A DNA stretch of 64,000 nucleotides from positions 2,418,001 through 2,482,000 of the forward strand of contig OZ287069.1 of the NCBI GenBank assembly GCA_965645245.1. Reading direction: 5' to 3'. Shown here piece after piece: positions 1,211 to 64,000 of this stretch. The DNA comes from Massalongia carnosa (Eukaryota). Under the pieces are notes generated by a model. It saw nothing but the letters and a program-made list of their open reading frames with translations. It ran no database searches and had not been told where the DNA came from. How positions within the stretch are numbered: position 1 is the stretch's first letter; each line of letters opens with the position of its first letter. The translations under genes and the position numbers were made by a program.

Positions 1211-1532
1211 AACGTCGGTACGCGTTACAAGGGAAACGTGTTGAGAGAATAGATAGATGTGAGAGTCAAATCAATAATAGTAGCCTAGATTGTGCTTGTC
1301 GATTGTTATCGCGATGATGATCCGTTTACGATTAATGACATCTTATGAATGAAGAGTAGAAAGCTTGTGAATGAAGAACTTGATTTTTATATCTTAGAGT
1401 TCTATAATACAATGTGTGAGGGATAAAGTAGGAGGATGATGTGTTGACTTCTCCTTTTGAGAAAAACAAGCAGCATTCCTTTTATTTATCATCATGCACC
1501 TCATTGTCCTAGCAATATTTGCTCCAAGCCCA

Positions 1533-1783
1533 TATCCTAGTGAAATTTTGTCTAACACTTGGTGGCTTGATTGTAGTCTGATGAACTTTGATCTGTCATC
1601 GGCTTGTATCCTAGTGAACTTTTACCTATCACTTGGTGGCTTGATTGTAACCTGATGAACTTTGATCTATCATCGGCTTGTATCCTAGTGAACTTTTATC
1701 TATCACTTGGTGGCTTAATTGTAACCTGATGAACTTTGATCTATCATCGGCTTGTATCCTCGTGAACTTTTATCTATCACTTG
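1533..1783. repeat. 74-bp tandem repeat, ~3.4 copies
   Basis: TATCCTAG/TATCCTCG recurs at 1533, 1607, 1681 and 1755 with near-identical intervening sequence. Confidence 0.95.
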
Positions 1784-2650
1784 ACGACAAGGAAAAACAG
1801 AGTCTGAACAGGGATATACCGTTTTCATTTAACAGGCACAGGGCCTATTAAATGAAACAGGGTTCTTCCACTTTCACTACTTCCATGTTTTCCCTTCTGT
1901 GGCATTCAAAAAATCTCTTTTGGCAAGGAAGGACTACTTTTCCAAGATGGGTCTGTATCTCTTCCTGCTCCCTGAACCTAGTTGACATAGTGGTATCCTT
2001 TGGTCTTTAGAGGTTCATCATTCCTTCTAATCTCCAGGCATACACGCTATTCAAAGGTTTGTTGAGATTGCCTTGGGCCTTTGGCTAACGGCCTGTCTGG
2101 TGTCCAAGGTCTTTGTAGGTATTGTGCCTTTGAATTTCAATCACTATTGAATTTCGTGTAATGATGCATGTGCGTAGTTCACGATAGATAATCGTGGTGA
2201 GGTAACTTCTAAGTACGCAAAGAAATTTTAATTATTGCATCTAAGGGGGGTTTTTTTTTTTGGTGAACGATGATGCTTAGCTATTATGCACTGTAGTGCT
2301 GCGAATGAGCAATTCGATTCGTGACTGAATCGATAGCGCCCTTCCGGGCTCATAACCTGTTGAAATAGGTATATGACTATGGCTATATGGCTATGATAAA
2401 AATGGTATGTATGACCGTGATGTTAAGGATGAAGCGTGCTGTTCAGCATCTTTGTCCCATAACTGGTCACCCTCTGCTAAGCGAGGTGATAAGATTATCT
2501 GAGCCGATCTTATCTAATATCTAGGCTAAGCCTAATACGGCATCTACGGTTTCTGTAGGTGCTCTTATGTTCATTGAACTGGTAGGTGTTCACTGTACTG
2601 GTAGGAGTTGAATATTCAACAGGTATCAAGGGATATGATTTTTACACCTG

Positions 2651-2752
2651 AAAAAGGTTTTCCATGTAACATAACTTAGATAGCTTTGCCCGCATGGGCC
2701 GGCCTACGGCCGGTGACATATCGGAGTATGAATACATCATCATCATCATCAT
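2651..2752 (+). mobile_element. LINE-related 3' end (hairpin plus (CAT)n tail); 5' extent unclear
   Basis: AAAAGGTTTTCCATGTA...TTGCCCGCATGGGCCGGCCTACGGCCGG...(CAT)n is an inverted, diverged copy of the 3' UTR at 2765-2871. Confidence 0.75.
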
Positions 2753-2764
2753 AACCGTTATTAT

Positions 2765-4758
2765 GATGATGATGATGATGATGATGATAATTCTTATTCC
2801 GATGTGGTACTGGCCGAAGGCCGGCCCATGCGGGCAAGTCTATGGAATTATATAATACATGGAAAACCTTTTGAGGAAGAAAAACCAAGTCATCCGATAC
2901 TTCTACGAATACTCTCCGAGTCTCCGTCGAGAGATCTTCCTAAAGAACAGTTGACCGATGAAAAGTTAAAGAAAAGAATCGACGTATTTAATCGCCAATT
3001 GTCAATGATATAAATGCTGTGCTGCCAGTGAGAACTGGGTTAGTAAGCCGGTCTTCATTAACCAAGCGGTAACTAGTTTCATCGCTCTGGATGAGTCAGT
3101 AATGAGTCTATAATTATTTGTTCCTATGGAGCGTAACATTGAACGTCTGTTACTGTTGAGTTTGCAAAACATGATTACATGTTTCGCGGTTTGTTTTGGC
3201 CAGCCACATGGACACTTCGGTGTCAAGACGTCGGGAACGCGACGTCTAAATAGGAAGTCGGCTAGACCTATCTTTTCTGAGCGTATCTGAATTGATAGAG
3301 CGCTTTCTGCTTTGGCTAGAGTTTCGTGTAATTTGATGCGTGTTTTTGTGAGTGGGGCTGCTTGTGCTGGAGTAGGCGTAGATGTGAGGTTCTGATATGA
3401 TTTCCAAGAGGTCTGCCATGCGTCTGTATATCGTTGTTTTATTTTCGCGATTATTTTGCCTTGAACGGCACGCGCTTCTTGGATGTCTCGAGCTGTATTT
3501 AGGGGGGTTTCGGCCCATGGTGGGTTCGCTACCGGCATCAGGCTTTTTTGCTTGGCCCATGCATATTTCAGCGTTCCCGGAGTACTCGCAGGAGCTCGCT
3601 TTCGTCCAGGCCGTCCTCTGAGTTTGTTTGCAATGGAGTTGCATGCATTGATGATGAATTTCCTTTGACCTCCCTGACACAAGCGATGTCTAGCCTGAGC
3701 CTGAAGTTGATCTAGATGTATATCAATTGGGGCTATGTACGTTTCCGCTTCCAGTACCGGTATGGGAGTCGCCTTAAATGCCCCAGCTATAGTTCGTAAG
3801 CATTCATTCTGTATGACGGCTAGCTTGTTTGAGATACCGTTCGATTTTTTTATTTCCTTTGGCGTGTGCCATATGGTAGAACCATACGTCATGGCCGGAC
3901 GGACTACGGCGGTGTATACTTGGCGGGCTTTTGGAAAGGTGGCGCCCCATGTGGAGGTAGAGATTTTTGTCAGTGCCTTGGATTGTTTTGTCAATTTTCC
4001 TGGATCTTTCTGACGTGCGGACCCCATTTCAATTTTGTGTCGATTCGAAGTCCCAAGATTCTAATGTCCGTTTTTGGTTCTATGATGCTATTTTCTATTC
4101 TAACGATAGTATCTTCGGATTTCTTGACAAGTGTATCAGTTCGTACTTTTTCGGTGCAAAAACTGATCCGTGTCGAATAGCCTATTTTTCGCATTTCTTG
4201 TGAATTTCCTCCAGCGTTTTGCAGTTTTCTTTCGTGCTTTTCCCATATGCTAGTACGTTTATGTCGTCTACGAAACCTAAGGCGCTCGTGTTTGTTCCGG
4301 GTCTTTCACATATGTCTAACAGGTCTGCGTTATAGAATAGATAAAGGATAGGAGAAATAGGAGAGCCTTGTGGTATTCCAGTTCGTACTTCGAATATGCC
4401 GGTGACTCGGCTATGTATTGCTAGGGTGGTGCTTCTCTTTTAAAAAACTGTCTACCCAGTCAGTAATCCATTTTGGGATTTTTCGTTTGCGCAGGTTATG
4501 AATTAAACGTCGATGTGACACTGTATCATACGCTCCTGCTACGTCCATGCTTAACAGAGTAGCTATTTTGTCGTTGCCTTGCCCCTAAACTGTGTGAATT
4601 TGTTCAGTTAACAATTCCAGAGCAGTTTCGATTGATCTTCCTCTTCTCGCCCCCATTTGTGTGTCCGGTAGGAGTCTGTGGGTTCCGCTAGGTGAGTAAT
4701 TTTCTTGGACATGATAGATTCCATAACCTTGCCGAGCGTGATCAGAATTGCTATGGGG
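2765..4758 (-). mobile_element. 5'-truncated Tad1-like LINE with (CAT)n tail and 14-bp TSD
   Basis: ATAACCGTTATTAT at 2751-2764 and 4759-4772 flanks an RT-coding segment, a 3' UTR with GC hairpin, and a (GAT)n tail as read on the + strand. Confidence 0.92.
3002..4758 (-). pseudogene. non-LTR reverse transcriptase (ORF2) fragment with C-terminal zinc finger; stops and frameshifts
   Basis: Motifs PIAILITLGKVMES, QMGARRGRS, AYDTVSH, GIPQGSPISPILYLF, GFVDDINVL, LGLRIDTKLKWGPH, YTAVVRPAMTYGS and CPCGWPKQTAKHVIMFC, split across frames. Confidence 0.9.
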
Positions 4759-4814: not shown

Positions 4815-7427
4815 GGGAACGGATAACAGGACACCACTTTGGTTAGATAAACACCACCTCCGGTTAGGTAAACACCACCTCCGGTTAGGTAAACACCGCT
4901 AGCCCAGGTAAGGTAGATTCCTCGGCCCGCCCGCCTCTTCCACTTTTAGGTCTAGCGGTTGAAACTCCCACATTCTACCTGCACCTCATCCTTGCACTCA
5001 TATTTCACATTTGATCTGCAGGCACCCTGCCGCCGCCACGTCGTCATGCCGCTTCGACCTCCCGAAGATAGTCAATCCTTTGCCTCACTAGAAGACCTGT
5101 TGCTTAGAGTCAATGAGCATGCCGCCCCCGAAGGCTACGCCGTGGTGCTTCTTCGAACCAAGAAAACCAAGCTGGGAGTGAGAAATAAAGCTTGGTTAAA
5201 ATGCGACCGAGGTGGAAAAGTCAGAGAACCGCAGGGTCAGGATCGTCGGCACACCAGCAGTCGACTAATTGCTTGTCCATTTGCCCTGACAGCCAAAATG
5301 GACGACGAGGTGTGGTTTTGGAGGTGGTAAATGGGACACACAATCATCCGTCCAGTCTTGCTGGCTCTCATCCTGCCTTGAGAAAAATCGCTCTGACCGG
5401 TGTAAAGGATGACGTTACCAGACAGTTAACAGTACAAACGTCGGCGTCAAAGGTTTTGTCTAGTCTGCGTGTTCCCGATGTGAATGCAGATCTCAGTCCT
5501 CATGATCCCAATGCCGAGATCATTGTGAATCCGATGTTTAAACCTCGGGACATCTACAACTTAAAGGCGCAGATGAGACGTGATGTCTTGGGACCATTGA
5601 CTCCTATTCAGGCATTGATTCGTGAGTTTGACGAAAAGGATTGGGTGTACAACTTTCAACAAGACATTCAGCAGCAGATTACGCATCTCTTCTTCATCAA
5701 GGGCAGTTCCCAAACTCTTCTGATAGATAATCATGAAGTTCTCATTATGGATTGCACGTACAAGACCAATCGATACAAAATGCCTCTTCTCGTCATCAGC
5801 GGACAAACCGCGCTACATACTACCTTTTATGTCGCCTTTTGCTTTCTGATCACGGAGACAGCAGAGGACTACATCTGGGCTTTACAGCAATTGAAGGAGG
5901 TGTATTCTCGATTGGAACTTCCTGATTCGATTATTCTCGTGTCCGACATGGAGAAAGGATTAATGTTGGCATCTTCCATAGTCTTTCCAAATATCAATTA
6001 TTTGCTATGCATCTGGCACATCAATCAGAATGTGTTGACAAAGTGCAAAAAATCTTTCGACAATGAGGAATGGAAGATCTTTTTGTCAGATTGGAAATCA
6101 GTGATCTATGCAGCAACCGAGCCTCAATTTTGGAAGCTATGGGAGCAGTTTTCTGCTACCTATATGACTTCTCATGAAGATTGTATTCGATATTTGAAGT
6201 CCACCTACATTGATAATCATCGCGATCGCTTCATGGCATGCTACACCAACAAGGTGCTGCATTTTGAGACAACGGTAACGTCGCGAGGGAAAGGCGCACA
6301 TGCAGTATTAAAACGTCAATTAGGATCATCGACCGGAGATTTGAAGCTGGTAGTTGACGGCATTAATCTGCTACTAACAAATCAGTATCATGATCATCTG
6401 ATTGCTTTTGAAGAAGCCAGAACACGTTTTCCACTTCATCTTCGCAAAGTTATCTTTCAGCAACTGAGAGCATTTATCAGTCCCTATGCCCTGAAAAAGA
6501 TTCTACACCAATACGAGTTATTAACAGGAAGACCGACTGTTATTCCAGCTTGTACCAACGTCTTCACTACCATCACCGGCTTGCCTTGTAGTCATCTGAT
6601 TCAGCAACGATTATTCGAGAATGAAGGAAGTCTGAAATTGGAAGATGTGCACCCGCATTGGAAGTAGGTTATTGTCATCTGATCGATGGTCAGCGATCAG
6701 CTACTAACAACAGTTCAAGGTTGGAAAAGCGCGCCCCTCCGATTGCTTTGATTAATCCTCTTCTTCTAGTGAGGGTACCGGAGATAGCCCGACCTCGTGG
6801 TCGCCCTCAGGGAGCGGAAAACAGACGAGCGGAGGCATTTGACAATTCCACTCATCGATTACCATCTCAATTCGAACGGGTTGAAATGGAAACAGCTGAT
6901 GCAATAGCTCCGGTGGAACGAGCTATTCATCGAGCCAATACTACACCAGGCAGGGTAGGACGTCGGGGGCGAGGGCGAGGGCGAGGACGAGGGGGAGGGA
7001 GAGGAGGGGGAGGGGGGGTTGGTGAAAGAGCTGAGACAAACACAAGGACTGGCCGAGCTAGGGCTAGGGCTAGTCGAGGCAGAGCTGGTCGAGGAAGGGG
7101 AGACGGGATTGGCGGGGATGCAGCAGATGGAATTGGCGGGGATGCAGCGAATGCGGCTCCAATCAACTGATTTGCATTACTAAGCTTCAAATAAAGGGTG
7201 CGATTCATGAAGACAGTGCCAATCGACAAATCCAATGTCTAGTAATCGATGGTTGAAAGCTGAATTGAATTTTTTCTTGAGGTGTCAGTGTTGGGATGTG
7301 GACTGCTAGACCTAAAAGAGGAAGAAGGCGGACGGGGCCGAGGAATCTACCCTACCTGGGCTAGCGGTGTTTACCTAACCGGAGGTGGTGTCTATCTAAC
7401 CAAAGTGGTGTCCTGTTATCCGTTCCC
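4815..7427 (+). mobile_element. Mutator-like (MULE) DNA transposon, ~120-140-bp TIRs, 8-bp TSD
   Basis: GGGAACGGATAACAGGACACCACTTTGG... at 4815 is inverted at 7427. TATCTTTA is duplicated at 4807-4814 and 7428-7435. Confidence 0.95.
5046..7170 (+). pseudogene. MULE transposase (FAR1-like DNA-binding domain, DDE core, SWIM finger, AT-hook/RG-rich tail), frameshifted near 5315
   Basis: CDRGG..CPF..HNHP is split across two frames. IMDCTYKTNRYKMPLL, VSDMEKGL, LCIWHINQN, TSRGKGAH and GLPCSH are present; RPRGRP lies in a downstream frame (probable intron after 6663). Confidence 0.88.
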
Positions 7428-41337: not shown

Positions 41338-43241
41338 ATGTCTGATTCGTACAAGAAACGAGAGGCTAACATTGCAAAGGCCTTAGATGCATTTGCGAAG
41401 AACACATACAAATCAGCCGCATGTGACGAAGCGAGACAGTGAATAGATTTCTACCATTGCGCCACCTGTCCTTCCCGACCAAAAGGCACAATACTTAGTC
41501 CGCAGACCAAGCTCTATTCTACTATAACTGGGACTCCTGCTATGTTCGCTGTAGGTCCTGCCGTCCGCACCACGCTTGGTCGGACCGTTACACCGCAGCC
41601 TGTGCCAAAGAATTCGATATTTCACCTCCTCTATTTCAAAGAAGACTACATGGATATAGCAAGCGAAAAGCAGTCAATATGAGGCTGTCTGCTGCACAAG
41701 AACTAGCCCTGAAGGAGTATATTGAATTTCTTGATGATATTGAATTATCAATGAGATTGCCATTGATTCGCGGTGCAGCTAATTATTTGTTGCAATTGCA
41801 ACATCCTTCCTCGTCTTCATCTTCTCTCACCCGCGTAGGAAAATGCTGGACCGGACGATTCTTGAAAAGAAATCCCCAATTTTTCATGCAAAAAGGCAAG
41901 CCATTAGCAGCCGAAAGGAAAAACGCTCACAATGTTACGGATATTCAAACTTATTTCTCTTCATTTCAATCGACTGTAGCCCTTCTTGGTATAACTCCAG
42001 ATGATATATGGAATATGGATGAGACAGGCTTTCGAGTTGGCTGTGGGGTAACCCATTTGGTGGTGACACTATCATCACATAAACTAATTATGATCGCTCA
42101 TCCAGACAATCGAGGCTATATAACTTCGGTCGAATGCATCAATGGAGTTGGCGGAAGCGTCCCATCCTTTTTGATTTTGAAAGGGGTCAACATACTTCAC
42201 AAATGGGCCTTAGAGAATGATTTGAAAGATGATATCGTGTTGACTACAAGCGATAGCGGCTATTCGAATGATTGTCTAGCATTAGAGTGGCTAAAGCATT
42301 TTAATGCTCATTCAATAAAGGTTCAAAAAGGAGCGTTTAGGCTTCTTTTGTTGGATGGATATGGATCTCATCTAACGTATGAATTTTGGGAATATTCGAA
42401 AGAAAATAAGATCTGTTTATTCAGATTACCCCCCCATTCAACCCATTTGACGCAGCCATTGGACGTTGGTGTTTTTCAGCCAATGAAACATTATCATGCT
42501 GAAGCGGTTGACAACGCCATTCGGTTGGGTGACGTTGACTTCAATCGTCTGGATTTTCTGGCCGCATTCAATCAATTTCGTACAAAGGCATTCAAATCAT
42601 CTACTATCAAATCAGCCTGGGAAAAAACTAGGTTGATACCTTACAATCCGGAGGTAGTCTTGACCAAAATTCGTGCTTTAAATCCGGCATTACCACCACT
42701 ACCAATATCATCTTCGGAGACAATAATCCTACCTCATACCCCCAAAAAGCCCAAAACCGTTGCTAAGGAAGGGGAAAACATTATTCTGCGAATGAATAAT
42801 AATGAAGAAATTACTCCAGAAAGAATGCGACGTTTTATCAAAGGGTCGGTTGCAAACGCTAATTTACTAGAATTGACGCAACGCGACTTGCAAGCCACAC
42901 ACACAGCTGCATTAGCTAAAAGGGCCCGAAAAAAGCTTGCTGGCACCGTTGTTCAGAAGGGAGGAATCGTTACCGTTCGAGATGTGAGGCAAAATCACCT
43001 ACATCGTACCCAAGAAGAGGTGGAAAGGGAGGAGGGTCGTCAAAAGCGTGCTGAGACGGCTAGACAAAAGAAAATATTTATCTATGGAAAAGCGATAGCT
43101 AAACGGTTTGGCTTGGTGGGTAAAAAGGCCGAAAGCTGGATAGATGAACGTCAGCCTTTGATTTTGAATAGCTTCATTTTGAAAGGGTCAATCAATGGAT
43201 ATAATGTAAATAGTTTGAGAAATGCGTCATGGAGAGGATAG
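41338..43241 (+). pseudogene. Fot1-type DDD transposase interrupted in its N-terminal HTH by a solo LTR; remainder is an open 520-aa ORF
   Basis: WNMDETGFR, LLLDGYGSH and QPLDVG are intact. Removing 41422-41597 restores MSDSYKKRE..KSAAACAKEFDISPPLFQRRLHG..NMRLSAAQE in frame. Confidence 0.9.
41422..41592. mobile_element. solo LTR (171 bp), 5-bp TSD
   Basis: TGTGACG...CGTTACA termini; CCGCA is duplicated at 41417-41421 and 41593-41597. Confidence 0.88.
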
Positions 43242-49920: not shown

Positions 49921-52900
49921 TCACATCAAACTGCTTCTACCCCCAATCTCGCTCCCCCCCTGTCCGCTCGGCATCTCCCCGTTCCTGCCCACGACGAATT
50001 CCCGATAAATACGGGCCAATCTACTCCGCTCGTCCACGCTAATGGAACTTCTTGTCGAAGCCAGAGAGGCTTTGATATGCTTCCATTGAACGATCACGGC
50101 GGGGTTCGCGTCACCGTCGTTGTCATCGATTCTATCCCCTCCCCGCTTTCTGTCTCCTTCAGGGCCTCTGGTGGCTTGGTGGAGGAGGGAATCTTCACCG
50201 CGACGTGCGTGCCGTTCTCGACGCTCGATTCTCTTGATTGCCTCGAGTTTGGCGGAAACCGAAGGTTGCTGGTGGGTAGGTGGTTGTGGACGGGGTATAG
50301 TGGATCCTGGGCTCTCTTCGCCGCCAAAGCGGAATTGAAGGGGTTCTTTTTGGGGCAAGTTTCGATGATCGAGTTTGTTCTCGATTTGGTTAGCCTTCTT
50401 CAAACCGGGTTTGTTCGAGTTCTTGTCATCCAGCAGGTCATGGATAGCTTTGAGATGGGCATTGTAGATGACCGCTTGCAGATCCGCCCCCGAATAGCCT
50501 TCGGTACACCGCGCGACTTCAAGAAGACTCTCCCGCGGATCTATAGCTCGAAGGAGATCAGGACTAAGATAAAGTTTCTTGCTCAGAGCTTGAAGAATAT
50601 CATGCCGATCGTCCAAATTGGGTAGATCACAGATCAATGATTTGTCTAGCCGGCCAGGTCTTAGCAGGGCAGGGTCAATGAGGTCAGGTCTCGAAGTAGC
50701 TGCAAGTACGTATACGCCCGACAGACCTTCTGCGCCATCCATCTGCGTCAAAAGTTGATTGACCACGCGGTCGGTGACACCAGTGGAATCATGCCCTCTT
50801 TTGGGCGCTATGCTGTCGAATTCATCAAAAAACAGCACACATGGCCTGGCGGCCTCTGCTCGTTGAAACAGATCCCTCACGCTCTTTTCGCTAGCTCCAA
50901 TGTACTTATTCAGGATCTCAGGGCCTTTTACACTGATGAAGTTAAGGCCACATTCTCCCGCTACTGCACTTGCCAACAGTGTTTTCCCGCACCCGGGGTA
51001 TCCATACAATAGTAGACCCGACCTGAGCCGTAGTGGGCACTGCGCGAAGATAGGAGCATATGCAGTTGGGTATTGCAGAGTCTCCAGAAGAGTCTTGCGA
51101 GTCTCAGAAAGGCCACCTATGGAATCGAACCTGGTCGTAGATGATTGCAATGTCACATTTCTCAAAGAAGCAGGGGTAAATCCTTTGAGCGCGCGTTGAA
51201 AGTCTTCTTTCCCTAGTCGAATGTGTGTCTCTTCATCCGAGTTTGGTAAGAGATCAACTAATCTTATTAAAGCCTCACTCCTTGCGCGGGAGACAAGAAG
51301 CACTAAATCTCCTGGCATATAGCCGTCAGTTTGTCCGGCGAGGTCAAGGAAGTCAAGGTTTGTATCAGTTTCAAATGTTCCAAATGCGGAAGAAGACTTG
51401 GGTGAATTTTTTGAAATAGATTCACCCATCCACGCGGCTTCGTCCTCGTGACTATCAGCTGGAATCCTGCCAAATGTGCCGACGCCATTGGATCCAGAAA
51501 TCTCATCCTGTCTGCCACGAACAAGCCCTTCAAGAAAATGGCGCCTACTATCCTTGTCAGGTGCCTTCAACTCAATAATCTCTCGCACTACGTGCCCCCT
51601 AGTAAGAACACTATTGAGGCCTTCTTTGCTCTGCGCTGTTGCAAGCAGCACAATACCTGAGTTTATACCACCATACTGATGCACCTTCGCGCAGAAGAGT
51701 TCGCTAATTTGTCGACTGCGGTCGTTATTTCCACCAACTTGCAATTCTGTTTCAGCAGGGCAAAGCTTATCAAAGTCATCCAGTATGACAACAGCACGCC
51801 CACCAAGCTGGGTCCCCCATGAAGCTGTCATTAGTAATCTATCAAGTGTCTCCTTGATACTTGAAACGCGTATATCGTCACTGACTAGTTTTGTGCATGA
51901 TAAGAAGGCAGCATGGAATAACGAGGTGGAGCGTAGCTTTTGCCCAAGTAAACGTGCCAGGGAGGTTTTACCAGATCCAAGTCCACCAGTCAAAAGTACA
52001 GAAGAGGAATGTAAAAGGATAGAAAACAACTGATCAATGAGTTTGGTGATACCAATCATTTGCGAAGCGTCAACTGACAGAAAATCATTTCTAGTCACCC
52101 CTGCTTCGAAGCTATGTAGTGGGTCTGTAATATCTTCTTGTACTTCAATGGATAAATCAATCTCATTCCCAAGGACCCAGCCCAAAGCATCGTTATCGCT
52201 ATTTCCAGCGCTCACAGGTGGAGGATCAAGTCGTATCAGGACTCCTTCCCAAGGATCTTTGGACACGTCTTTTTTCGGGTTCCTCAATACAAGACGATCA
52301 GTTATTGGACCATCTAAAACACATGTAAGGCTATGGCCTTTGGCGGCATAGTGACTTTTGATCATGCCAGCCATTGCTTGATGCTTATTTTTCGACTCTC
52401 CTCCAAACCTTAAGCCATCACCCCATTTGAGCCCACTAGCGTTGAACGGGAATAATTTCAGGGACCTTATTTCAGTCTTTGATAACCGCGGTGGTGCTGT
52501 TTCTATTCGGATAAGACCACCCACGATCCCTCTACATCCCAACGCAAAACTCAGGGTAGAAGAAAGTGAAATATGGCGTACATCAGGCGCATCGTCCCAA
52601 ACCGCTAATTCTGCCACTACCTTGACAGCAGGTTTGACAGTTCCACTTGCTTCTGAATCTCTAACCTTTTGCTGCTGCTGTGGATCCGCAGGCGAGCCAA
52701 GCGCGGGTGGCCGCACAACCGATACCTGAACCCATTTGAGTCCTCTCAACGGTTTATTCAATAAAATCTCTGGGTCTAGCCACACTTTAAGTCCAACATC
52801 CCGAGATGAAGGAGTGACATCATCGAAGAACTCATGAGAGGAAATTCTATCAACAGCGCGGAAAAAGAGAACCTCGCGGACAGATGAGCGCTTCTGTTCG

Positions 52901-53847
52901 CTACGCTGGTGGCTTATCCCTGGAGCACTTCTGCCTTCTAAGCTTCGTCGACTAGTACTAGCGATGCTTCGACTTTGGGTTCGACCCATCGGCGTCAACC
53001 GAGGTCGCATCTTTGGCGCGACGATGACTTCAGCCTCAGGGGCAATTTTGGCAAAAGGGGCTGAAGCCGGCAGCGCCGGAGCAAGCGAGATTACAGAGAT
53101 ATTTGCTGTTGAGGTTGGGGAAAGATGAAGGGTTAGGGGATGAACATAAGTGCCATCTGAAGTTTGAGGGTCGATAAACGAGGGATTAGGCAGAGCTCGG
53201 ATTTGTGAAAGTAGGTTGAGTTCCAGGAAAGTTGCGTGCAGCTCGATAACTAGATGAAAGTAAGGATTGAACATTTGAAGGGAACTTCAGGACCTTTACT
53301 CTCCCAATCAGCGGGTGTAAGCGGTTCTATATTGATCGTGTGGGCCACCGGAGGATCCAGGTGTAGCAGTATCCCAACCTTGATACCATTTGAGCTAGCT
53401 CGCAGAAGCATACAGACCCGTGCTAACCTTCTGACCTTCTATCAGACCCAGCGTCCGTCCAAAAGTTGTATCAAGTTCTACCACGGGGGATTCTGTCCTG
53501 TTTTCGGAAACGCTCTTTCTGCTATGGTTGTCCAAGGTAGATACCAATTTTTGTTGGCTTGGCATACCAGTCCATCCGACGAATATGGAAGAATAGGCCC
53601 CGTTCTTGACATCTCTTGATGTAGAGGTCGGTGGATTTGTCTTCTTATACTGCAGCTCAACGATGACATTTTGAACGGCCTACAAAACCAATGAGATATA
53701 TGTAGAGCTTAAGGCCGAGCGGCATGTGGAGAACCTTACTGTCTGTGTATTGAGCAACACGGCAACCAAAGACCGTGGTAAGTTTATCAGGCAGTTTTTT
53801 AATTGAATTAGTCCAACTTCTGCTTGACTTGGTGCCCTTGAACCCAT
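49921..53847 (-). CDS. PEX1: peroxisome biogenesis AAA ATPase Pex1, multi-exon
   Basis: N-terminal LKNCLINLP, AQNVIVELQY and EPLTPADWE motifs; D1 GGLGSGKT; D2 SGLLLYGYPGCGKT..FFDEFDSIAPKRGHDSTGVTDRVVNQLLTQMDGAEGL; C-terminal EIGGRSSLM. Confidence 0.95.
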
Positions 53848-54245: not shown

Positions 54246-56909
54246 ATGGCTCTACTCACTTTTAAGGCAATGGCAGATTACGCCGCACAGCAGAGTATGC
54301 AGGCAAAGTTCTAACGTTGAGTATTGAGACTCGCTAAACTAAAGCCATCATCTAGGCGCATTCGAAGACTTCCTGACAAGCTATGAGTCCACTGTCTCCG
54401 ATCTAGACGCAGTTGCGACAGACGCGCTGGAGGGTCTGAACATCGACGAAGATGGTCTGAGCGACGAATATGTCATTGTGGATGACGGGCAGAATGGAAA
54501 GGGGTTTCTTCAAAAGCCCGATCAATATGGTGACCCAAAGAAAAAATACATGCACATGCTACAGAAGGTGGCGGATCGGCAAATATCGGAAGTGACGATA
54601 GAACTAGACGACCTTAAGCATGTTCGTCTATCCCTCAGAGGAAGAAAGTAGACCGTATTATGATTAATAACTTCATTCTAGTATGAGCAGCATTTCGCAG
54701 AAGATATGAGACTTCAATTAGTTGAGTCGATCGAGCGAAATGCTAAGCATTACATCGATATTTTCTCCCAAGCCGTTGACAAAGTGATGCCAAAAGAAAC
54801 TAAGGAAATTTCGTGAGACTTGAAGGATAGGGTTTCCAAGCATCTGCTAACAATCCTTAGGTTCAAAGATGATGTGTTGGACATCATCATGTCCCAACGG
54901 GAGAAACGAAATGAGACAATGACCCTTGCGGCGGATAGTGAAATCGATCTTTCTCAGCCAGAATCTCTTTTCCCTGCCGAGCTCACACGACGTTATACCC
55001 TTACCTTCAAGCCAGTCACACCGTCAAATTCGACTGGTGACCGCAACCAAAAAGCGCTGGCTGTTCGAAATGTACGAGGCGAGCATTTGGGGCATTTGAT
55101 TACGGTGCGCGGCATCACAACCCGAGTTTCCGATGTCAAGCCATCCGTCCAGGTAAATGCGTACACCTGTGATCGCTGCGGATGCGAGATATTTCAGCCT
55201 GTCACGGCGAAGCAGTTTACCCCTATGGTTGAATGCCCTTCGGAAGAATGCAAAAGCAACAATTCAAAGGGCCAATTATTCTTGTCAACCCGAGCGTCGA
55301 AATTCTTACCGTTCCAAGAGGTCAAGATTCAAGAAATGGCTGACCAGGTTCCGGTTGGCCATATCCCCCGAACTTTGACCATACACTGCCATGGAACTTT
55401 AACAAGACAGATCAATCCCGGTGATGTCGTTGATGTGGCAGGCATCTTTCTACCCACTCCATATACAGGTTTCAAAGCCATACGGGCAGGCCTGCTGACA
55501 GATACCTATCTTGAAGCCCAGCATGTTAATCAACATAAGAAAGCCTATGACGACTTGGTCTTTGATGCAAAAACGTTCAGGAGGATAGAACAATACAAAA
55601 ATTCAGGACATATGTACGAATATTTGTCGAGATCAATCGCTCCTGAGATCTATGGTCATTTGGATGTAAAGAAAGCACTTCTTCTCCTTCTAATTGGCGG
55701 TGTCACGAAAGAGATGGGCGATGGCATGCGAATACGAGGAGACATTAATATCTGCCTAATGGGCGATCCCGGTGTTGCTAAGTCGCAGCTTCTTAAGTAC
55801 ATTACGAAAGTGGCACCTCGGGGTGTCTACACTACGGGACGTGGCAGCAGCGGTGTAGGGCTAACGGCGGCTGTCATGCGTGACCCTGTCACCGATGAAA
55901 TGGTCTTAGAAGGAGGAGCTCTAGTTCTAGCAGATAATGGCATTTGTTGCATCGATGAGTTTGACAAGATGGACGATGGTGACCGGACAGCTATTCACGA
56001 AGTCATGGAACAGCAGACCATCTCCATTTCGAAAGCTGGCATCACCACTTCTCTCAACGCTCGTACATCAATTCTTGCGGCCGCCAATCCGCTTTACGGC
56101 CGATACAACCCACGCATATCTCCTGTCGAAAATATTAATCTTCCCGCCGCGTTGCTGTCCCGGTTTGATATTTTGTTTCTGATGCTTGACCAGCCTAGCC
56201 GTGAATCCGACGAGGAGCTCGCTCAGCATGTTACTTACGTTCACATGAACAACAAGCATCCCGAAACCGAGGGAGTTGTCTTCACACCACACGAGGTGCG
56301 CCAGTATATCGCACAAGCTCGTAGTTGGAGGCCCACGGTTCCCCAAGACGTCTCTGAGTATATGGTAGGTGCCTATGTGCGAATGCGCCAGCAACAAAAG
56401 AAAGACGAAGGAGGAAAGAAGCAGTTTACTCACACGTCAGCCCGAACGCTTTTAGGAATCCTGCGTCTCTCACAGGCATTAGCTCGGCTACGCTTTTCCC
56501 CTCAGGTAGTCACCGACGACGTGGACGAGGCTTTACGATTAATTGAGGTTAGCAAAGCAAGTTTATACACTGAATCTCGTGGTGAAGCCGATCAAAGTCC
56601 CAGCAGCAAAATCTACAATCTCATCCGGGCGATGAACGAAAGTGGAGCTGCGGCTGTTGGAGATGGGAGCAGAGGCGAGATGAGCATCAAAAAGGTTCGA
56701 GAGCGGATCATTGCTAAGGGATTCACGGAGGACCAGTTTAGTTCCGCGTTGGATGAATACTCTTTGTTAGACGTGAGTTCCATTGTCTTTGGAATTATCA
56801 GAATATTACTAATGCAGGTTATGGGTAGATTTGGCAAATTGCGGCCGAAGGGACCCGGCTTGTTTTCATTGAGTCTGGGGACATGGACGTTGATATGGAG
56901 GATGAATGA
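54246..56909 (+). CDS. MCM7: DNA replication licensing factor Mcm7, multi-exon
   Basis: [22 protein letters not shown] zinc finger, [45 protein letters not shown]; last exon [15 protein letters not shown]. Confidence 0.96.
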
Positions 56910-57471
56910 GTTTAAACAGGCCATATTCCGCGTGGCGTCCTGGGTTTCATGATGGCTTGGAACTGTGTACTGGAATATATCCCGGCGTATTTGCAGCGAG
57001 AATCGTCCCGTTCATTTAATGAGTTCTGAAAATTTCACCCTTTCAAGAGTTTCCTTGCCTTGTGAGGGGAAAGGGGGTGCTGAAAGGACCTTTGAAGCTT
57101 GCATCATTACCTCAGACTGCCCGGCTAAGCCTCTTCGGGTTAATAGGCTGACTACGTAGCACATCTGTAGCAAGTCTTGAGCTAAAACTCGTAGTTATGT
57201 TAGTCAGCTGAGACGCTAATCCGAAGGAGTTTAGCGAAGTAGGCTAACCTGGAGGGGCTTAGACGGCTCGTAGAGTCTAAGGTACTAAAGTAATATGACG
57301 TTACGTTCGATTGACAGAACAATGACCTCTTAAGGCAGAAGGCAGTTATATTGAATCGCTTGGATCATTTCATGTTTACTTACCCTCTCAAGTAGCCCAA
57401 CCACATCGAAACTTTCCCGAGAAAACCGGCGTACATTTCCCCCACAAAGCAATAGGATAGCCTCAAGCAAC

Positions 57472-58690
57472 ATGCGGGACACTGGCTTTCACCCATTCAA
57501 AGGCAAAGTCAGCAAGCGTTTATCGGGTACGGTACGAGTCTCCGAGTCAGTTGATACTCCCATGAGCACCGATATTACTGCGGCGCCTGGTTTCGGGCAC
57601 ATTCTTCAGTTCTAACTTACTTGGTGTGAAGATGAGCCCTGATGATGCGTACTTGAGCTGTATGTCATGGCCTTGGACATCCAATGGCGGTGGGCTGACT
57701 CTTGGCAGATCATGATATACGATGTTAGCGCGCCGAGCCCATATAAATTACACACCAGCGGGCTGAGACTGAGGATTTGTAGTAACGAAGGAGGACGTGG
57801 ATACGCTCAAGGATGACTGGTTGACGGACAATGTACCTGCATAAAATCAATCCACCTATTTTAGTCAAGCTGACCTTGATGTTTAGAGTATAGCATTTTG
57901 GGAGGAGTAAGTAAAATGAACAGTTCCTAGGAAGCCCAGGGCTCGGGAAACCACAGCATCCATTGAGACCCATAAAACCCATCGAAATAAAAAACTTATA
58001 TGATTCATAGATACCTTGAACGCGAGCACCTTAGCCGCTACAAGGGCGCCCACATCGTTCTCCTCCGCCCTTCTATGTCCTTCATGCTAATTCAAACCCC
58101 CAATCCCCTAACCTTGCGTGATGCCCTCCCGGACTTTTCCCAAACAACGCATATCTTCCTCCCCATCAACGACTGCCGCAATGTCGAAATTGCCGAAGGC
58201 GGCACCCACTGGTCGTTGCTTGTTGTCAGCGCCGTCGACGGCGTCGCATTCCACTACGACTCCCTCAGCCCGGCCAACCGGCCTGAGGCCAACATGGCCT
58301 CCCACAAGATTGGCCAGATGCTCGGAAAACAGTTGGAGTTTATAGATCTGCCGGATTCCCCACAGCAGGAGAACTCAAGCGATTGCGGCGTGTTCGTGTG
58401 CATTCAGATGCGTCACTTACTGCTGAAGCGGCTGCTGCGGGCTGACGTGCAGCATAAGATTAATATGAGTATGGGGGGGAGGGGCGTGGATGCGGTAGCG
58501 GGAAGGAAGGAGATTTTACGGATCATCGAGGCTTTCAGGAAAGAGGGGGAGAGACGAAGATCGTGAGACATTGCCTATTCCATATTGTCGGGCCAGCCGA
58601 GGGCGGATGCTGATGAAAATACCTAGGAGAAGCACGAGTCCGTTTAAGAACGGAAACACCGGGTCCAGAAGCCCTCCGAGGATCGAGTGA
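57472..58690 (+). CDS. NEDD8-specific Ulp1-family protease (DEN1/SENP8-like), seven exons including micro-exons
   Basis: The spliced product reads PDDAYLSYHDIRLTKEDVDTLKDDWLTDNSIAFWEEYLE..LLRPSMSF..FLPIND..GGTHWSLL..HYDSL..PQQENSSDCGVFVC. Confidence 0.9.
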
Positions 58691-59374
58691 TACCCGAGCT
58701 TCATGCCCCGCGCCGTTTCATTTTAATTTTCTGCTTGTATAGCTTCGGCGTTCCGTGTCCTTGTCTTCATCGTCTTGCTTTCTCACAGAATTTTGCCCGG
58801 TGGCTTTCAAAACAATAGGGTTTTTGTATGCAGCCCCGCTCATAGAGCTTCACCCCCTAAAAAGAAGCCTTGCTTAGAAAGCCGAGGTTTTCTCATTCAG
58901 GACATACACGTCCACATTCATGAAATTCACTTGAGATAATTTCACGCCAGAAATAGCCCTCGCTCCAAAGCTCATAAAATAATTCACATTTGCATTGAAT
59001 CCCATTCTCCCCTCACTAAAAAAAACTCCCAGAAAATTAACTTCAATTCTCTATAACTAACTAGTTTCCTTTCAATGACCATTAATCACACCTCATTTCA
59101 AACGGTTCCTCTCTCTATATATTTCTCTCTCCCTTTCTTCAAGTCCCAATTTCTTACTCCCGTTTTCCAAGATTTTCTAGCAGACAGAAAAGGTCCAAAC
59201 GGAAAATGAAAGAAATTCAGGCAAGAAAACAAAGAATAAGAGAGGGGGAATGGTCGGATGGACTTGCATGCATCATGACAAGGCAGGGAGGGAGGCTATC
59301 ATGCTGACTACCTGTCTCGCTCGTTCGCTAGCAAGCTGTTAGGCTAGGCTAGGTACCTAGAAAGAGAAAGAAAA

Positions 59375-59400
59375 AGAGAGAGAGAGAGAGAGAGACAGAG
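59375..59400. repeat. (AG)n microsatellite
   Basis: Read directly from the sequence. Confidence 0.85.
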
Positions 59401-59879
59401 AAGCAGATAAAGAGGAAGAGAAAGTAAAGATAAAATGGATATCTAGATAAGTGGGTAATCAGGGAAGGTAAATGGGAGCGGGAGGGGAACGAGGGGAAAC
59501 GAATGGATGATAGGATAGAAGAGAAGGATTGGGAGTGGGGGGATTACAACGAGGTTGTTTACAGCAGCGGAAATGGAAATGAGGCGAAGGGTGGGGGAAT
59601 GTATATATATTTTTAGAACTTGTGAGTTCTTGGGGTTTTCGTTCCTAGGTTTCGGGGATCTGGGTCTTTACTTTAGCTAAGAAGTTGGGTAAGTGATGAA
59701 ATATTCTGCGAGCAGGTTCTTTGTTAGTCACGATCGCTTTGTTTTTTTTTTGGTATTTTGGGCTCGCCCTTTTTTCCCTCTTCAATTTGTCGGACCCAGG
59801 ATCCCTTCTCTTATAGCCCCTTTGAAAGATATCCTGCAAACCCAAGCCCTTCTCTAAGCTAGAAGCAACCTATCCTATC

Positions 59880-60521
59880 CTACCTAACCCATCCTCTCCC
59901 TACCCATCTTATTCCATCGCTAATAGTAAACGTCGCCATGCCAAACTCATTTTCCATCATGAAGTCATAGACCGCGGTCAGCGCCTGCCCAACCACCCTC
60001 CACGTCAACTCGCCCCTGTCGGAGGGAGATGGTCATGCCCGCTTCATGCTGCTCCGGTCCATAATGTTAAAGTCCGTTGGGGACGAGGCCGTCACCCACG
60101 GACGCAATGTAATGCAATACAGCGCCGGAGGCTTCATTCAGCGCGAGGGCGAGCTCCGTGGGGCCGCGGCTGACGAGCTGTGTGACTATTTCGATAACAA
60201 CGAAAGTTACGGATTGACACACATTGAAGGCGGGTATTGGTGAACGCCCGGGGACTGAGGGGCGGGGATGTTGCGGTGTTACTAGCAAGAGATAAGCCAA
60301 GGAGTTTGCTGGTAGGCAAGGAGAGAGGAAGTAGGGGATGTAGTAGACTAACAGGTCTATACGATCTCGGGGTGAGGCAAAGTAACTTTAGGGAGGAGGA
60401 ATTGAAGTTTGTTTTGGGCGAAAAGGTAGGCGGGGTCTGTTAACGACAAAGGGAGGGTATTCGGAAATGGGACCATGTAGACGGCAAGGCGCATAAGGGA
60501 AAAGGTAGCCAATGCTCGCAT
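59880..60521 (-). pseudogene. decayed small secreted-type protein gene
   Basis: Hydrophobic N-terminus and a probable intron at ~60283-60353. The coding-like segment LHYIASVGDGLVP..ELTWRVVGQALTAVYDFMMENEFGMATFTISDGIRWVGRG is broken by TAG/TAA stops and a frameshift. Confidence 0.45.
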
Positions 60522-61819
60522 TTTTCATTTAAGTTTAGCGAGACGATCGGTTCGAGTTAAGAGAGATGAAAAGAGTAAGATGATGCTTTGTATACCTTAA
60601 AACAAGGGGTAATACAGCGCTGCGTTGACAAACTAGGAATAGGAAGTACTTTCGACCAAAAAAATGATACTCAACTTTGAGTTCTTTCCAAGGGCCAGAC
60701 AAGTCAAGTCTTCGTACAGTTTTTGACATCATACGTCCGGCTCCTTGCATACCTTGGGGTCCAATATACGAGATACACACTTTGTTTCGACCGAGGTACT
60801 CATCTTAGAGAGTAGCATAAACTTTAACGTCGAAAATCTCCGCTATTTTTGAGTTTCACATGTTTCACTGCTTTGGAAGGGCACACTGTATCGATAAGAA
60901 GCAAAATCGGTGTCGGTTGACAGCGATTCGCATCCTGCAAGATACGAGTATTGCGGGCGATTGCGGGTAAAACATACTGTTTGGTCATACGGATATACCT
61001 GGTAAGTCCTGTGCGACATCGTAGGAAACATTAGGCCCCAGAGTGATCTGGAAGCTTATCTATTAAGATATACATACTAACATCGTTAGTTTCGGATTGA
61101 CCTATCGATAACTATGTGTAGGACAAAGCGCTTCAGAACACCGCCACATGTTCGACCAATAGTGTTGTATAGCAGAATATTAGTTTCTTTTGCTTTGTTG
61201 ACCATTGAGCGAAAAGTGAGTAATGCCCATGGCATCAGCATTTGAAAGTAGACCAGGCGTTTGCAGCTTATGGAAAGATTAGGTAGCAACCGGCGACCAC
61301 CCAATGCCATTTAAACAAGAACCACTTCACCAGCGTGAGTATTTTCAGTTGTAAACCCACGGAAACAAAAGAAAAAGAAGGCTTATATGTTCATATGTAC
61401 TTTGTAAGCGTGGAACGTAAGAGCCAGATTAGGCTAAGGAAAAGGGGCCGGAAACGAGAGTTTGCCCATTTTCTCTGTATCTTCTAGTGTCAGAACTTCT
61501 GTCTAGGCGCTGTAAGTGGCGCTCTTTATGGTGAGAGCTACTAACTATGTTCTCAAAACCTTACCGTATTCGCGCCAATTACTTTTAATCCCATCTTCTT
61601 CCTCTCCATGGCTAAAGGAATCTGTTAGCAAACGCACAAATTTCCCAAAGGCTTATATATGAAGCCTCTGAAACACTTGCTTACCAAAGATTGTCCTACG
61701 TATGCCCAAATGTTTCTTTGCAAATAGGAAAGAGAACTTAAGGGAAGAGAGTTAAAGAGAAACTCGAGCAGCCGCTTTCTTTTGGGGGTCGCATCGGCTC
61801 TGACAGCAAGACCTAAGCA

Positions 61820-63670
61820 TCACCAGTCTCCCCCTTCAAGGACGGCAGCACTTGCATCCCACGATTCGTTTTCTGGTGCGGGCATTAAGGTGCTAGGCGC
61901 CGGAATGATAAATGGCCAGCGCAGAGACTGAATTTCCTGGCGTTGCCATGGCGGATTGGCGCTTATAGGCTTGAGTAGCTCCTTTACAATCCCTTCTCGA
62001 TGGGCGGGGCGAGAAGGTGCATTCATGTTCCTAGTGCTAAACTGGCGGGTTTGGGGGTTTGCAAGCTTGACTTGTTCCTGGAAGGTTGATCGCCTAGGCA
62101 GGCGCTGAATTACATTGGATTTAGGTAGAACCTGCTTTTGACGAAAATTAGAAAGTTCGGCGTCCTGTGCTTTCTTTGATGTTGATAGCGCTGTGGCTAC
62201 AGACGTCGGTTCTTTGTGTTCTGGATATTTTCGTGATCCTTTCCTACTGTCTGTCTCCGCTGGCCAGAACTTCGTCGTATTTCCTAGTGCCTCGCTGACC
62301 CTGTTTATCTCGACGGTGAGTTTCTGACATATGGCTGAACTGGCACGGTGCCCAGCGCCGCATAGAGCACACTTTGTTACTAGGCTTGAGCATCCAGGCG
62401 TGGGGTGGGGACCTGCACATAGTCCACACCGTGTGGGTAAGGTGCATTGGGTTCCACGATGTCCATAAGACTGGCAATTATCACATTGAACCGGGCTGCA
62501 ACCTCCTGCATATCTCCGACAATTGAACACTCTCCCTTCCCACAAAAGGCCTTGAGAGATCGCTGCATTCGCCTGCTCAACAGTCCTAAATTTGACCATC
62601 AAGGCAGCGGTTTGCTTACTATATGCATCCTTACTAATCCAGCGAACATGCCTTATATCTTTAGGGCTTCGAAGTATAGACATGCGTGGCTTGTTTTCAA
62701 CCACTATTTCCTGGAGCGTTTTGAGCTCGTCTACTTTATTTTCAATGGACATGGTCGCAGGCCTGACATTCTGCATTTCAACAGCGTAACCGTCAATGCG
62801 AGTCTTCCGCATCAATTTGTCAACTAACGTTGTTGGTTCACCAAAGACAGGGATTGAGTAGACGGCGTCGACTGTTGGTGACCCATTGTCTGCGCGTTCT
62901 GAGCCGCAGCGCGTTGTTGCTTGTGTAGCGGCGCTATTGTCTCTGCCCTGCTCCATATCCGGATCATTGGCTTTGGGCAGGTTTGATTCTTGGGATTCGT
63001 GTGATGGACTTGAGCTTGATGTCACAACAGGTGCCGTTACTGCCCCTTGAGTTACCCCAGGTTGCAGAGCTAGGGATTTACAGAGTGCCGTTGGTAGATT
63101 TATAGTATCATTAAGCTCATCCAAGTCTGTATCCAGATCGATATCTTGGGGCATGGTTGATACCTCGAGCTCTTGCTGCTGGAATGCAACTGGCTCGGAA
63201 CTCGACCTATCAACAAGAGCCTCCTCGTCAAGAAACGGTTTCTTCACAACAGCAGAAATTTCCTTGTCCTGAGCCATTTCCTGACTAGACTCAAATTCTT
63301 CCAGGAGAGCGAACCGAGCTGACAGATGAACCCGAGCCCTGATATCCAGCCCCTTCAACTCTGCTTCCGTAAGCGCAGCCAGCAATCTCTCACTAAGGTT
63401 CATGTACTGTTGCGAAAGCACGTTATAGTAATAATTCGGCACAGCCCCGGCTGGGCTATCCTTCACATGACGATTGATCTTCGTGAAATTACATCTTAGA
63501 AGGCGGATAAGTTCAAGCAGATCTTGCGGTATGAAGTTCTCCAGCCGTGGCCATTCAAGCCCAGACATTTTTAGTGAATATTCTGGGCAAACAGAATTGA
63601 ATATGAGCTGATTCTTGAAAAAGTCCTGAGTGTCAGCGTACAGCATAGATGTTAGCCCAACAATCCACAT
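61820..63670 (-). CDS. intact protein containing a LINE ORF1 (gag-like) RRM plus triple CCHC module; true start probably in an upstream exon
   Basis: 616-codon uninterrupted ORF with ALMVKFRTVEQANAAISQGLLW..CDNCQSYGHRGTQC..CGLCAGPHPTPGC..CALCGAGHRASSAIC. A GTATGT..CTAAC..CTGAC..CAG intron lies at 63672-63626. Confidence 0.75.
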   Translation of the reverse strand: MWIVGLTSMLYADTQDFFKNQLIFNSVCPEYSLKMSGLEWPRLENFIPQDLLELIRLLRCNFTKINRHVKDSPAGAVPNYYYNVLSQQYMNLSERLLAALTEAELKGLDIRARVHLSARFALLEEFESSQEMAQDKEISAVVKKPFLDEEALVDRSSSEPVAFQQQELEVSTMPQDIDLDTDLDELNDTINLPTALCKSLALQPGVTQGAVTAPVVTSSSSPSHESQESNLPKANDPDMEQGRDNSAATQATTRCGSERADNGSPTVDAVYSIPVFGEPTTLVDKLMRKTRIDGYAVEMQNVRPATMSIENKVDELKTLQEIVVENKPRMSILRSPKDIRHVRWISKDAYSKQTAALMVKFRTVEQANAAISQGLLWEGRVFNCRRYAGGCSPVQCDNCQSYGHRGTQCTLPTRCGLCAGPHPTPGCSSLVTKCALCGAGHRASSAICQKLTVEINRVSEALGNTTKFWPAETDSRKGSRKYPEHKEPTSVATALSTSKKAQDAELSNFRQKQVLPKSNVIQRLPRRSTFQEQVKLANPQTRQFSTRNMNAPSRPAHREGIVKELLKPISANPPWQRQEIQSLRWPFIIPAPSTLMPAPENESWDASAAVLEGGDW

Positions 63671-64000
63671 ACGTGCACACGGAGGCGGAGATCCTCTACG
63701 CTGAAAGATTCAGCTGAATTTCAAAGATACTGTGATTGGGGAAATAAGGGCATAACGTTGTGGATATCCCTTGTGGTTACTCCCTTGGAACCGACTTAAC
63801 CTCTTGTCTCCTCAACCTCAAAGACCCTTCGGCTAAACCGAGTTATTCTGAGCAAACATGGTATGCTAAAGACACTTGAGATGTTGGAAGAATGATGAGC
63901 TGGAGAGGGGAGCAAGAAGTGGGTGGGGAGGTAAATTTTTTGATGTGCAGCAAACGCGGGGGGGCGATAAATATGTCAGCCATAGTTTAACCACCCCTCA

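Follow-up and report, generated by a model that had tools for sequence, protein, structure and literature searches.

The 64,000-nucleotide (nt) stretch of Massalongia carnosa DNA analysed here, referred to throughout as the window (contig OZ287069.1 of assembly GCA_965645245.1, positions 2,418,001-2,482,000, with all coordinates below counted within the window), carries close to its right-hand end a gene which, judged from its sequence, is probably a conserved host gene: a domesticated fusion built on the open reading frame 1 (ORF1) of a long interspersed nuclear element (LINE), and likely to serve as an RNA-binding adaptor. The frame is open from 61820 to 63709 on the reverse strand (629 codons from stop to stop), and the likely coding sequence, for which no internal intron is needed, occupies 61820-63568 of that strand and specifies 582 residues plus the stop (583 codons). 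Domestication is proposed because conservation along the protein is uneven, its domains have diverged congruently, a start and a terminal tryptophan are shared by its homologues, an unbroken contig spans the locus, and no second LINE reading frame (ORF2), LINE tail or target-site duplication was found there.

Residues 261-440 of the 582-residue protein correspond to the C-terminal half of a type I LINE ORF1 deprived of its coiled coil. A LINE-type ORF1 that is separate from the gene lies on the reverse strand at the opposite end of the window (1-1224), where it runs off the edge, and with its heptad-rich N-terminus, RNA recognition motif (RRM) and three zinc knuckles, recognised from the reading frame and by alignment, it served as the comparator. 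Residues 308-461 of the stop-to-stop frame aligned with this ORF1 at 31% identity over 157 columns (E 6e-19), and a profile of 12 family proteins matched it with a probability of 99.5 (E 3.5e-22, 149 columns), the profile alignment extending from within the RRM, via the three knuckles, to residue 397 of the 408 in the ORF1. An earlier note on this DNA had aligned the two by eye and had counted three CCHC knuckles, and on both points it was borne out. By way of contrast, the heptad-rich N-terminus of the comparator (crude heptad score 6.0 versus 3.75) has no counterpart in the candidate domesticated protein, the homology starting only at the RRM.

The ORF1-type RRM (residues 261-360; 62489-62788, reverse strand, as are all coordinates of the gene) was modelled by AlphaFold with predicted local distance difference test (pLDDT) values of ~80-91, and its assignment was supported by fold matches as well as by the alignment to the window ORF1. 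The top fold matches of this part were all RRMs, those of human L1 ORF1p (2w7a) and U2AF65 being tied first; the match to 2w7a (Z 7.2, root-mean-square deviation (rmsd) 3.2, 89 residues aligned) is a middling score that shows fold and not ancestry. The RRM is followed directly by three CCHC-type zinc knuckles recognised as sequence motifs (residues 362-414; 62327-62485), namely C-x2-C-x4-H-x4-C at 62444-62485, C-x2-C-x3-H-x4-C at 62390-62428 and C-x2-C-x3-H-x6-C at 62327-62371, and then by a helix and an FWP motif (62249-62323) that match the C-terminal end of LINE ORF1 in the profile alignment. Look-alikes of the module in a structure atlas comprised unnamed, zf-CCHC and PRE_C2HC clusters at 0.90-0.93, and serve as a lead only. 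In type I ORF1s, which occur in the I, Jockey, R1, Tad1, plant L1 and L2 clades, CCHC knuckles likewise follow an RRM (PMC4120745). By sequence homology and by layout, the RRM-knuckle module derives from a type I LINE ORF1.

Protein family, hairpin and terminal motif

An initial search returned nine proteins including the query, of 591-711 residues and with 32-42% identity in the best local alignments. When the first 90 residues were made into a profile and compared with 1.84 billion representatives, 15 matches were obtained, of which 12 were real (query included), P0020, P0022 and P0023 being dropped as repeat-driven or spurious, and one further member was found by a separate search. The hairpin described below and the ORF1 module thus occur together in at least 16 proteins (query included), among them 10 of the 12 real profile matches; the word-index search missed known members on a second run, and its family counts are lower bounds. 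The members that carry species names, MCJ1271661.1 of Lobaria immixta and MCJ1471031.1 of Pseudocyphellaria aurata, are both from lichen fungi of the Lobariaceae (Peltigerales), and the 90% clusters looked up contained one to four sequences each. No reverse transcriptase (RT) or endonuclease domain was present in 15 family proteins scanned against Pfam.

Conservation is distributed very unevenly along the protein. Mean identity to the query among ten close homologues was 70% for the hairpin, 41% for the third helix, 14% for the acidic linker, 38% for the RRM, 50% for the knuckles, 38% for the post-knuckle segment and 18% for the tail. Of 16 proteins, 13 share the same module length and 15 retain all three knuckles. 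An allele from another sample differed at six residues, all of them outside the hairpin and none a zinc ligand.

The best-conserved region, residues 1-65 (63374-63568), is predicted to form a helical hairpin with helices at residues 17-37 and 45-63, succeeded by a third helix at residues 66-90 (63299-63373) that is conserved in the close group only; mean pLDDT was 80. The hairpin corresponded to no Pfam family at cut-off, had no solved relatives by sequence (best E 0.91) and gave no usable structure-atlas matches, while fold searches returned generic helical matches only (best Z 6.3, rmsd 2.5, 63 residues aligned; best E 0.66), which neither show nor exclude a new fold. The gene defines an unnamed protein domain. 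A homodimer prediction for the hairpin, run without an alignment, scored 0.02. Four distant members possess two hairpin copies, the extra copies, which lay outside the profile, being detected at E 5e-5 to 8e-10 among 19 proteins searched.

Residues 91-260 (62789-63298) constitute an acidic linker predicted to be disordered (pLDDT <50 over most of its length), with 31 Asp/Glu against 13 Lys/Arg in the query, and the linker was net acidic in all 15 proteins measured. The earlier note had described some 290 N-terminal residues as unrelated helical and acidic low-complexity sequence, a description which holds for the linker but not for residues 1-65, which so far from being filler are the most conserved part of the protein. 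Beyond the module, residues 441-582 (61823-62248) form a basic tail, also predicted to be disordered (pLDDT <50) and net basic in 12 of the same 15 proteins, which ends in a terminal tandem-tryptophan motif, W-x11-W-stop (61823-61861), recognised by family comparison. Of 17 proteins, 14 have Trp as their last residue after this barely alignable tail, although Trp averages 1.3% of residues, and in 10 of the 17 a second Trp lies 8-11 residues before the end. One distant member, P0019, has a 499-residue, Trp-rich disordered tail of WQNE-type repeats that still ends in FW. Hydropathy indicated neither a signal peptide nor a membrane helix in five proteins tested, and basic clusters resembling nuclear localisation signals were present in 6 of 16 proteins, the query having none. 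The structure and profile checks that the earlier note had advised for both halves of the protein thereby confirmed an RRM fold for the module and gave a predicted helical hairpin for the N-terminus.

Pairwise identities in the hairpin and in the module were strongly correlated (rho 0.82, Mantel p 0.0005; 14 proteins, 91 pairs), which is what an old fusion passed on as a unit would produce. All members are 24-32% identical to the window ORF1 and 30-86% identical to one another.

Gene model, mobility and alternative explanations

The 616-residue model of the earlier note was rejected: the frame is indeed open, but the ATG of that model (63670) lies within the donor of a putative intron and most of the homologues first found begin further downstream. 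The intron signature, 47 nt in length (63626-63672), has GTATGT as donor and CAG as acceptor, with two CTRAC candidates for the branch site, and its probability of arising by chance in the 232 nt preceding the start is 0.006. It also contains the next in-frame ATG (63646), whereas the Met at 63568 is the start in six of the eight homologues first found; of the other two, one was called with a longer N-terminus but also has Met at this position of the alignment, and one was called 30 residues shorter. Since both upstream in-frame ATGs are intronic and homologues start at the 63568 Met, the protein is most likely one of 582 residues, with the intron in the 5' untranslated region (UTR), as predicted from sequence. 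The intron of the earlier note is accordingly present as a signature, and is placed in the 5' UTR; its use within the coding region was rejected, the spliced upstream frame reaching a stop without any ATG. A second intron signature begins 136 nt past the stop codon (donor end at 61684, acceptor at 61622 or 61612, reverse strand), and may be an intron of the 3' UTR, may belong to a gene further downstream or may be fortuitous.

The absence of stops, which the earlier note had considered to set this frame apart from the transposable elements around it, proved to be no such distinction: the comparator ORF1 and the frame at 41499-43241 are also open, and intactness alone therefore proves little. 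Three runs provided informative contigs. In run X1 a single contig of 42,881 nt covered 57200-64000 without differences (83 simple-repeat letters skipped), and the summed depth over 59619-64000 equalled the depth of that contig itself, with nothing else of weight at 80% likeness. The repeated piece at 57199-57275 drew 20-26 contigs in the same run, so that repeats were detectable in it, and runs X2 and X3 were in broad agreement, with more breaks. On copy number, a check advocated in the earlier note, run X1 disclosed no dispersed copies ~80% or more alike.

Nor was the remainder of a LINE found downstream. No frame longer than 122 residues was found between 58566 and 61820; a tblastx comparison of the locus with the RT/LINE remnant of the window matched the ORF1 module alone and no RT; no run of six or more A occurred for 2 kb downstream of the gene; and no tandem repeats were found in 59904-63758. 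The absence of a LINE tail and, in so far as an intact or recent ORF2 is concerned, that of ORF2, as reported in the earlier note, are upheld by these results. They bear in particular on the suggestion, which we regard as very improbable, that the gene is the ORF1 of a decayed full LINE with an eroded ORF2, or else a neutral fusion devoid of function. The 3 kb downstream in which no gene was identified would provide room for such an eroded ORF2, but the tblastx result is at odds with its presence, and neutrality is contradicted by a frame that remains intact in homologues only ~35-38% identical, with a shared start and terminal Trp.

Unlikely as we judge it to be, the main and a serious rival to domestication is that the gene belongs to an ORF1-only, non-autonomous retroelement, a fungal half-LINE, in which case the hairpin would be the ORF1 N-terminus of that lineage and the locus one surviving copy. 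Retrotransposition removes sense-strand introns, and the signature ahead of the gene is on the sense strand; the single unbroken contig over the locus, the failure to find either a tail or a target-site duplication in the flanking sequence available, the mere one to four members of the 90% clusters and the hairpin-only proteins P0017 and P0021, which fit a host domain, all point in the same direction. For a half-LINE it can be said that other mobile-element frames in the window are likewise open, that HAL1 elements, which arose several times in mammals, encode only ORF1p (PMC5753468), and that ORF1 proteins, being built of modules, exchange their N-terminal domains (PMC4120745).

A number of further observations weigh against domestication and are best considered together. 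Protein-level conservation is also displayed by active transposon lineages, and the correlated divergence of hairpin and module would be equally expected from the shared descent of a mobile element. In the tree of the family the window ORF1 occupied a long branch and the base was unresolved, with this one true LINE ORF1 as outgroup; none of 36 shorter ORF1-like candidates yielded another. Not every member is complete: the hairpin occurs without the module in P0017 (298 residues) and P0021 (76 residues, a stand-alone hairpin), with P0029 and P0030 grouped alongside, the knuckles are cleanly missing from P0014, a close member that retains the RRM and the terminal motif, and three of 17 proteins lack the terminal Trp. 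P0017, which also ends in FW, can be aligned (34%) with the first 290 residues of P0018, and proteins of the P0017/P0021 type may record a stage preceding capture, a subsequent loss or mistakes in gene calling; the absence of knuckles in P0014 may be a real loss or a miscalled intron. No homologue loci were found in metagenome contigs, viral contigs or prokaryote genomes. As to the locus itself, the rule defining the intron signature found 11 cases over the whole window against 5.2 expected, only about twice the background. Runs X1-X3 represent at most two samples of one study, possibly the source of the assembly, and contig depth is not a copy count, excluding only copies ~80% or more alike and not older paralogues. 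None of 75 downstream frames gave a Pfam match, but neither did a short RT remnant used as a positive control, and only an intact or recent ORF2 is therefore excluded. Finally, no exact repeat of 10 nt or more, as would mark a target-site duplication, was shared by the flanks, of which the upstream one extends for only 432 nt within the window, so that a 5' copy could lie outside it.

Possible function and relation to known systems

Domestication, the preferred reading, envisages a gene of at least the lichen-forming ascomycetes that would have been made once, by fusion of the C-terminal half of a Tad1-like type I ORF1 to a helical hairpin, and then kept. The RRM and knuckles would have retained the binding of single-stranded RNA that is described for the corresponding domains of type I ORF1 (PMC4120745), whilst the hairpin and the terminal Trp motif would act as protein-docking sites on flexible linkers. 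The resultant adaptor might bring its bound RNA to a host RNA-control machine concerned with silencing, decay or storage, a role suggested by the layout, in which a long acidic linker joins a small conserved domain to the RNA-binding module and a basic tail leads on to the terminal Trp motif. Given domestication, general control of host mRNA has a probability which we would set a little below even, control of LINE RNA is a substantial possibility, and other roles have a small share.

A further proposal, to be entertained only as an outside chance, is that the protein might guide fungal RNA silencing, the ORF1 module recognising LINE RNA and the Trp pair hooking Argonaute or another decay factor with Trp pockets. 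RNA interference (RNAi) acts on Tad in Neurospora (PMC2734521), Argonaute-binding sites in TNRC6/GW182 consist of two Trp ten or more residues apart (PMC9262622), and CNOT9 also has Trp pockets, to go by the title of a paper cited in PMC9262622. The corresponding tandem-Trp rule (at least two Trp, at least ten apart, in a flexible region) is obeyed by the query, with a spacing of 11, and the spacing is 10-11 in 9 of the 17 proteins, this being a necessary pattern and not a specific one. Were the proposal true, the packaging specificity of a LINE would have been turned into a protein-based sensor feeding RNAi, in a transposon-rich lichen lineage.

The earlier note had envisaged an exapted nucleic-acid-binding host protein acting in RNA metabolism or in restriction of Tad1 LINEs. 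Domestication is supported by the present results and a role in RNA metabolism fits the anatomy of the protein, but for restriction of Tad1 LINEs no direct evidence was found; the coiled coil is gone, and the module has only 30% identity to the one resident ORF1 available. In its most explicit form this idea holds that the domesticated gene blocks Tad1-like LINEs as a dominant-negative subunit, co-assembling with the ORF1 protein in the ribonucleoprotein, and we consider it improbable. The host does carry LINEs with the same type of ORF1, and for the mammalian protein L1TD1, which binds L1 ORF1p (PMC11925450), an origin in defence has been proposed (PMC4161310). Nevertheless, the homology begins only at the RRM and the heptad-rich part of the resident ORF1 has no counterpart, so that the protein would not join ORF1 oligomers through a coiled coil; L1TD1, by contrast, retains a coiled coil in its second exon (PMC4161310), and in the cells tested promotes rather than blocks retrotransposition (PMC11925450). 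Moreover, no member is closer to the resident ORF1 than the 24-32% given above, and there is therefore no sign of tracking.

Comparison with known systems places the domesticated gene among type I LINE ORF1s by its RRM followed by three CCHC knuckles and by sequence homology through to the C-terminal motif. It differs from them in that no ORF2 was found behind it, an unrelated hairpin and acidic linker replace the N-terminal half, a long tail leads to a terminal Trp motif, and the gene is apparently present in one copy. Accepted LINE ORF1 domestications are to our knowledge few, and nearly all are vertebrate and of type II (L1TD1, Lyosin). L1TD1 of placental mammals is similar to the gene in being derived from ORF1, in having no ORF2 homology, in possessing a long acidic low-complexity linker and in the apparent loss of parts in some members (PMC4161310, PMC11925450). 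In contrast to the Massalongia gene, which combines knuckles from a type I ORF1 with a non-ORF1 domain and has no coiled coil, L1TD1 originated from a type II ORF1 (coiled coil, RRM, C-terminal domain), contains two ORF1 copies and has kept the coiled coil (PMC4161310), and the two are of independent origin. Lyosin and other vertebrate L1 ORF1 fusion isoforms also join a piece of ORF1 to another domain and have long been kept, but those of the Lyosin type are alternative exons of known host genes (PMC12129022), as distinct from the one uninterrupted frame and uncharacterised partner domain found here.

Of the non-vertebrate and mobile counterparts, the EKA (AVRk1/AVRa10-like) proteins of powdery mildews are, like the present family, ascomycete proteins derived from a CgT1-like LINE ORF1 and devoid of a signal peptide, but with more than 1350 homologues per genome they stem from 3'-truncated ORF1 copies (PMC4641428; bioRxiv 10.64898/2026.06.05.730400), whereas in the gene described here it is the 3' half of ORF1, with RRM and knuckles, that survives and the 5' half that is missing, and the gene is apparently single-copy. 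HAL1 (half-L1) elements share with it an ORF1 without ORF2; they are repeated, retroposed elements (PMC5753468), whereas the present locus revealed neither further copies nor a tail or target-site duplication. EKA, the fungal case found in print, is thus a many-copy family of truncated elements, and a fungal gene that is conserved, apparently single-copy and derived from a type I ORF1 would add a separate instance of domestication, based on another ORF1 architecture.

No description of the family was found in the literature covered, which included the text of two lichen genome preprints but neither most subscription papers nor the supplements of these preprints, which may list such genes as orthogroups; the family is real and apparently undescribed. 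In the Peltigerales, where transposon content reaches up to 71% of the genome (bioRxiv 10.64898/2026.02.14.705750), a LINE-derived gene for RNA control would be of real interest.

Other features of the window

Both the genes and the splice signals of the window are fungal in character. A Pfam scan identified as neighbours of the gene MCM7 at 54817-56952 and an Ulp1-family protease at 57991-58566. Further to the left, 49921-53286 (reverse strand) encodes a 1121-residue AAA ATPase which, judged by eye, we take to resemble PEX1, and all three provide usable anchors for synteny comparison. No gene was identified in the ~3 kb at 58566-61820, but intron signatures on both strands (61002-61089 forward; 61684-61612 reverse) may point to a small spliced gene.

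In each run 20-38 contigs, 85-90% alike and at a depth at least 30-fold, matched a short piece at 57118-57275, which lies between MCM7 and the protease gene and may represent a repeat of high copy number or a fragment of organelle origin; neither tRNAs nor Rfam families were found in the window, this piece included. A Pfam match marks a MULE transposase frame at 5189-6667, and the open frame of 580 residues at 41499-43241 presumably encodes a transposase of the pogo/Fot1 kind, to judge from its motifs. Neither these two nor the other transposons of the window bear the signature of repeat-induced point mutation (TpA/ApT 0.51-0.81), for which reason indices of that process do not discriminate the gene from the transposable elements.

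The comparator ORF1 forms part of a more complex arrangement. Two LINE pieces lie head to tail on the reverse strand at 1-4600, namely the broken 3' end of an RT frame followed by the intact ORF1, whose own link to ORF2 is out of view because it runs off the left end of the window. The RT remnant (3002-4600) is situated upstream of the ORF1 and ends in a (CAT)n tract (2735-2788), and therefore belongs to another element; ahead of the ORF1, at 1533-1783, there are 3.4 copies of a 74-bp repeat.

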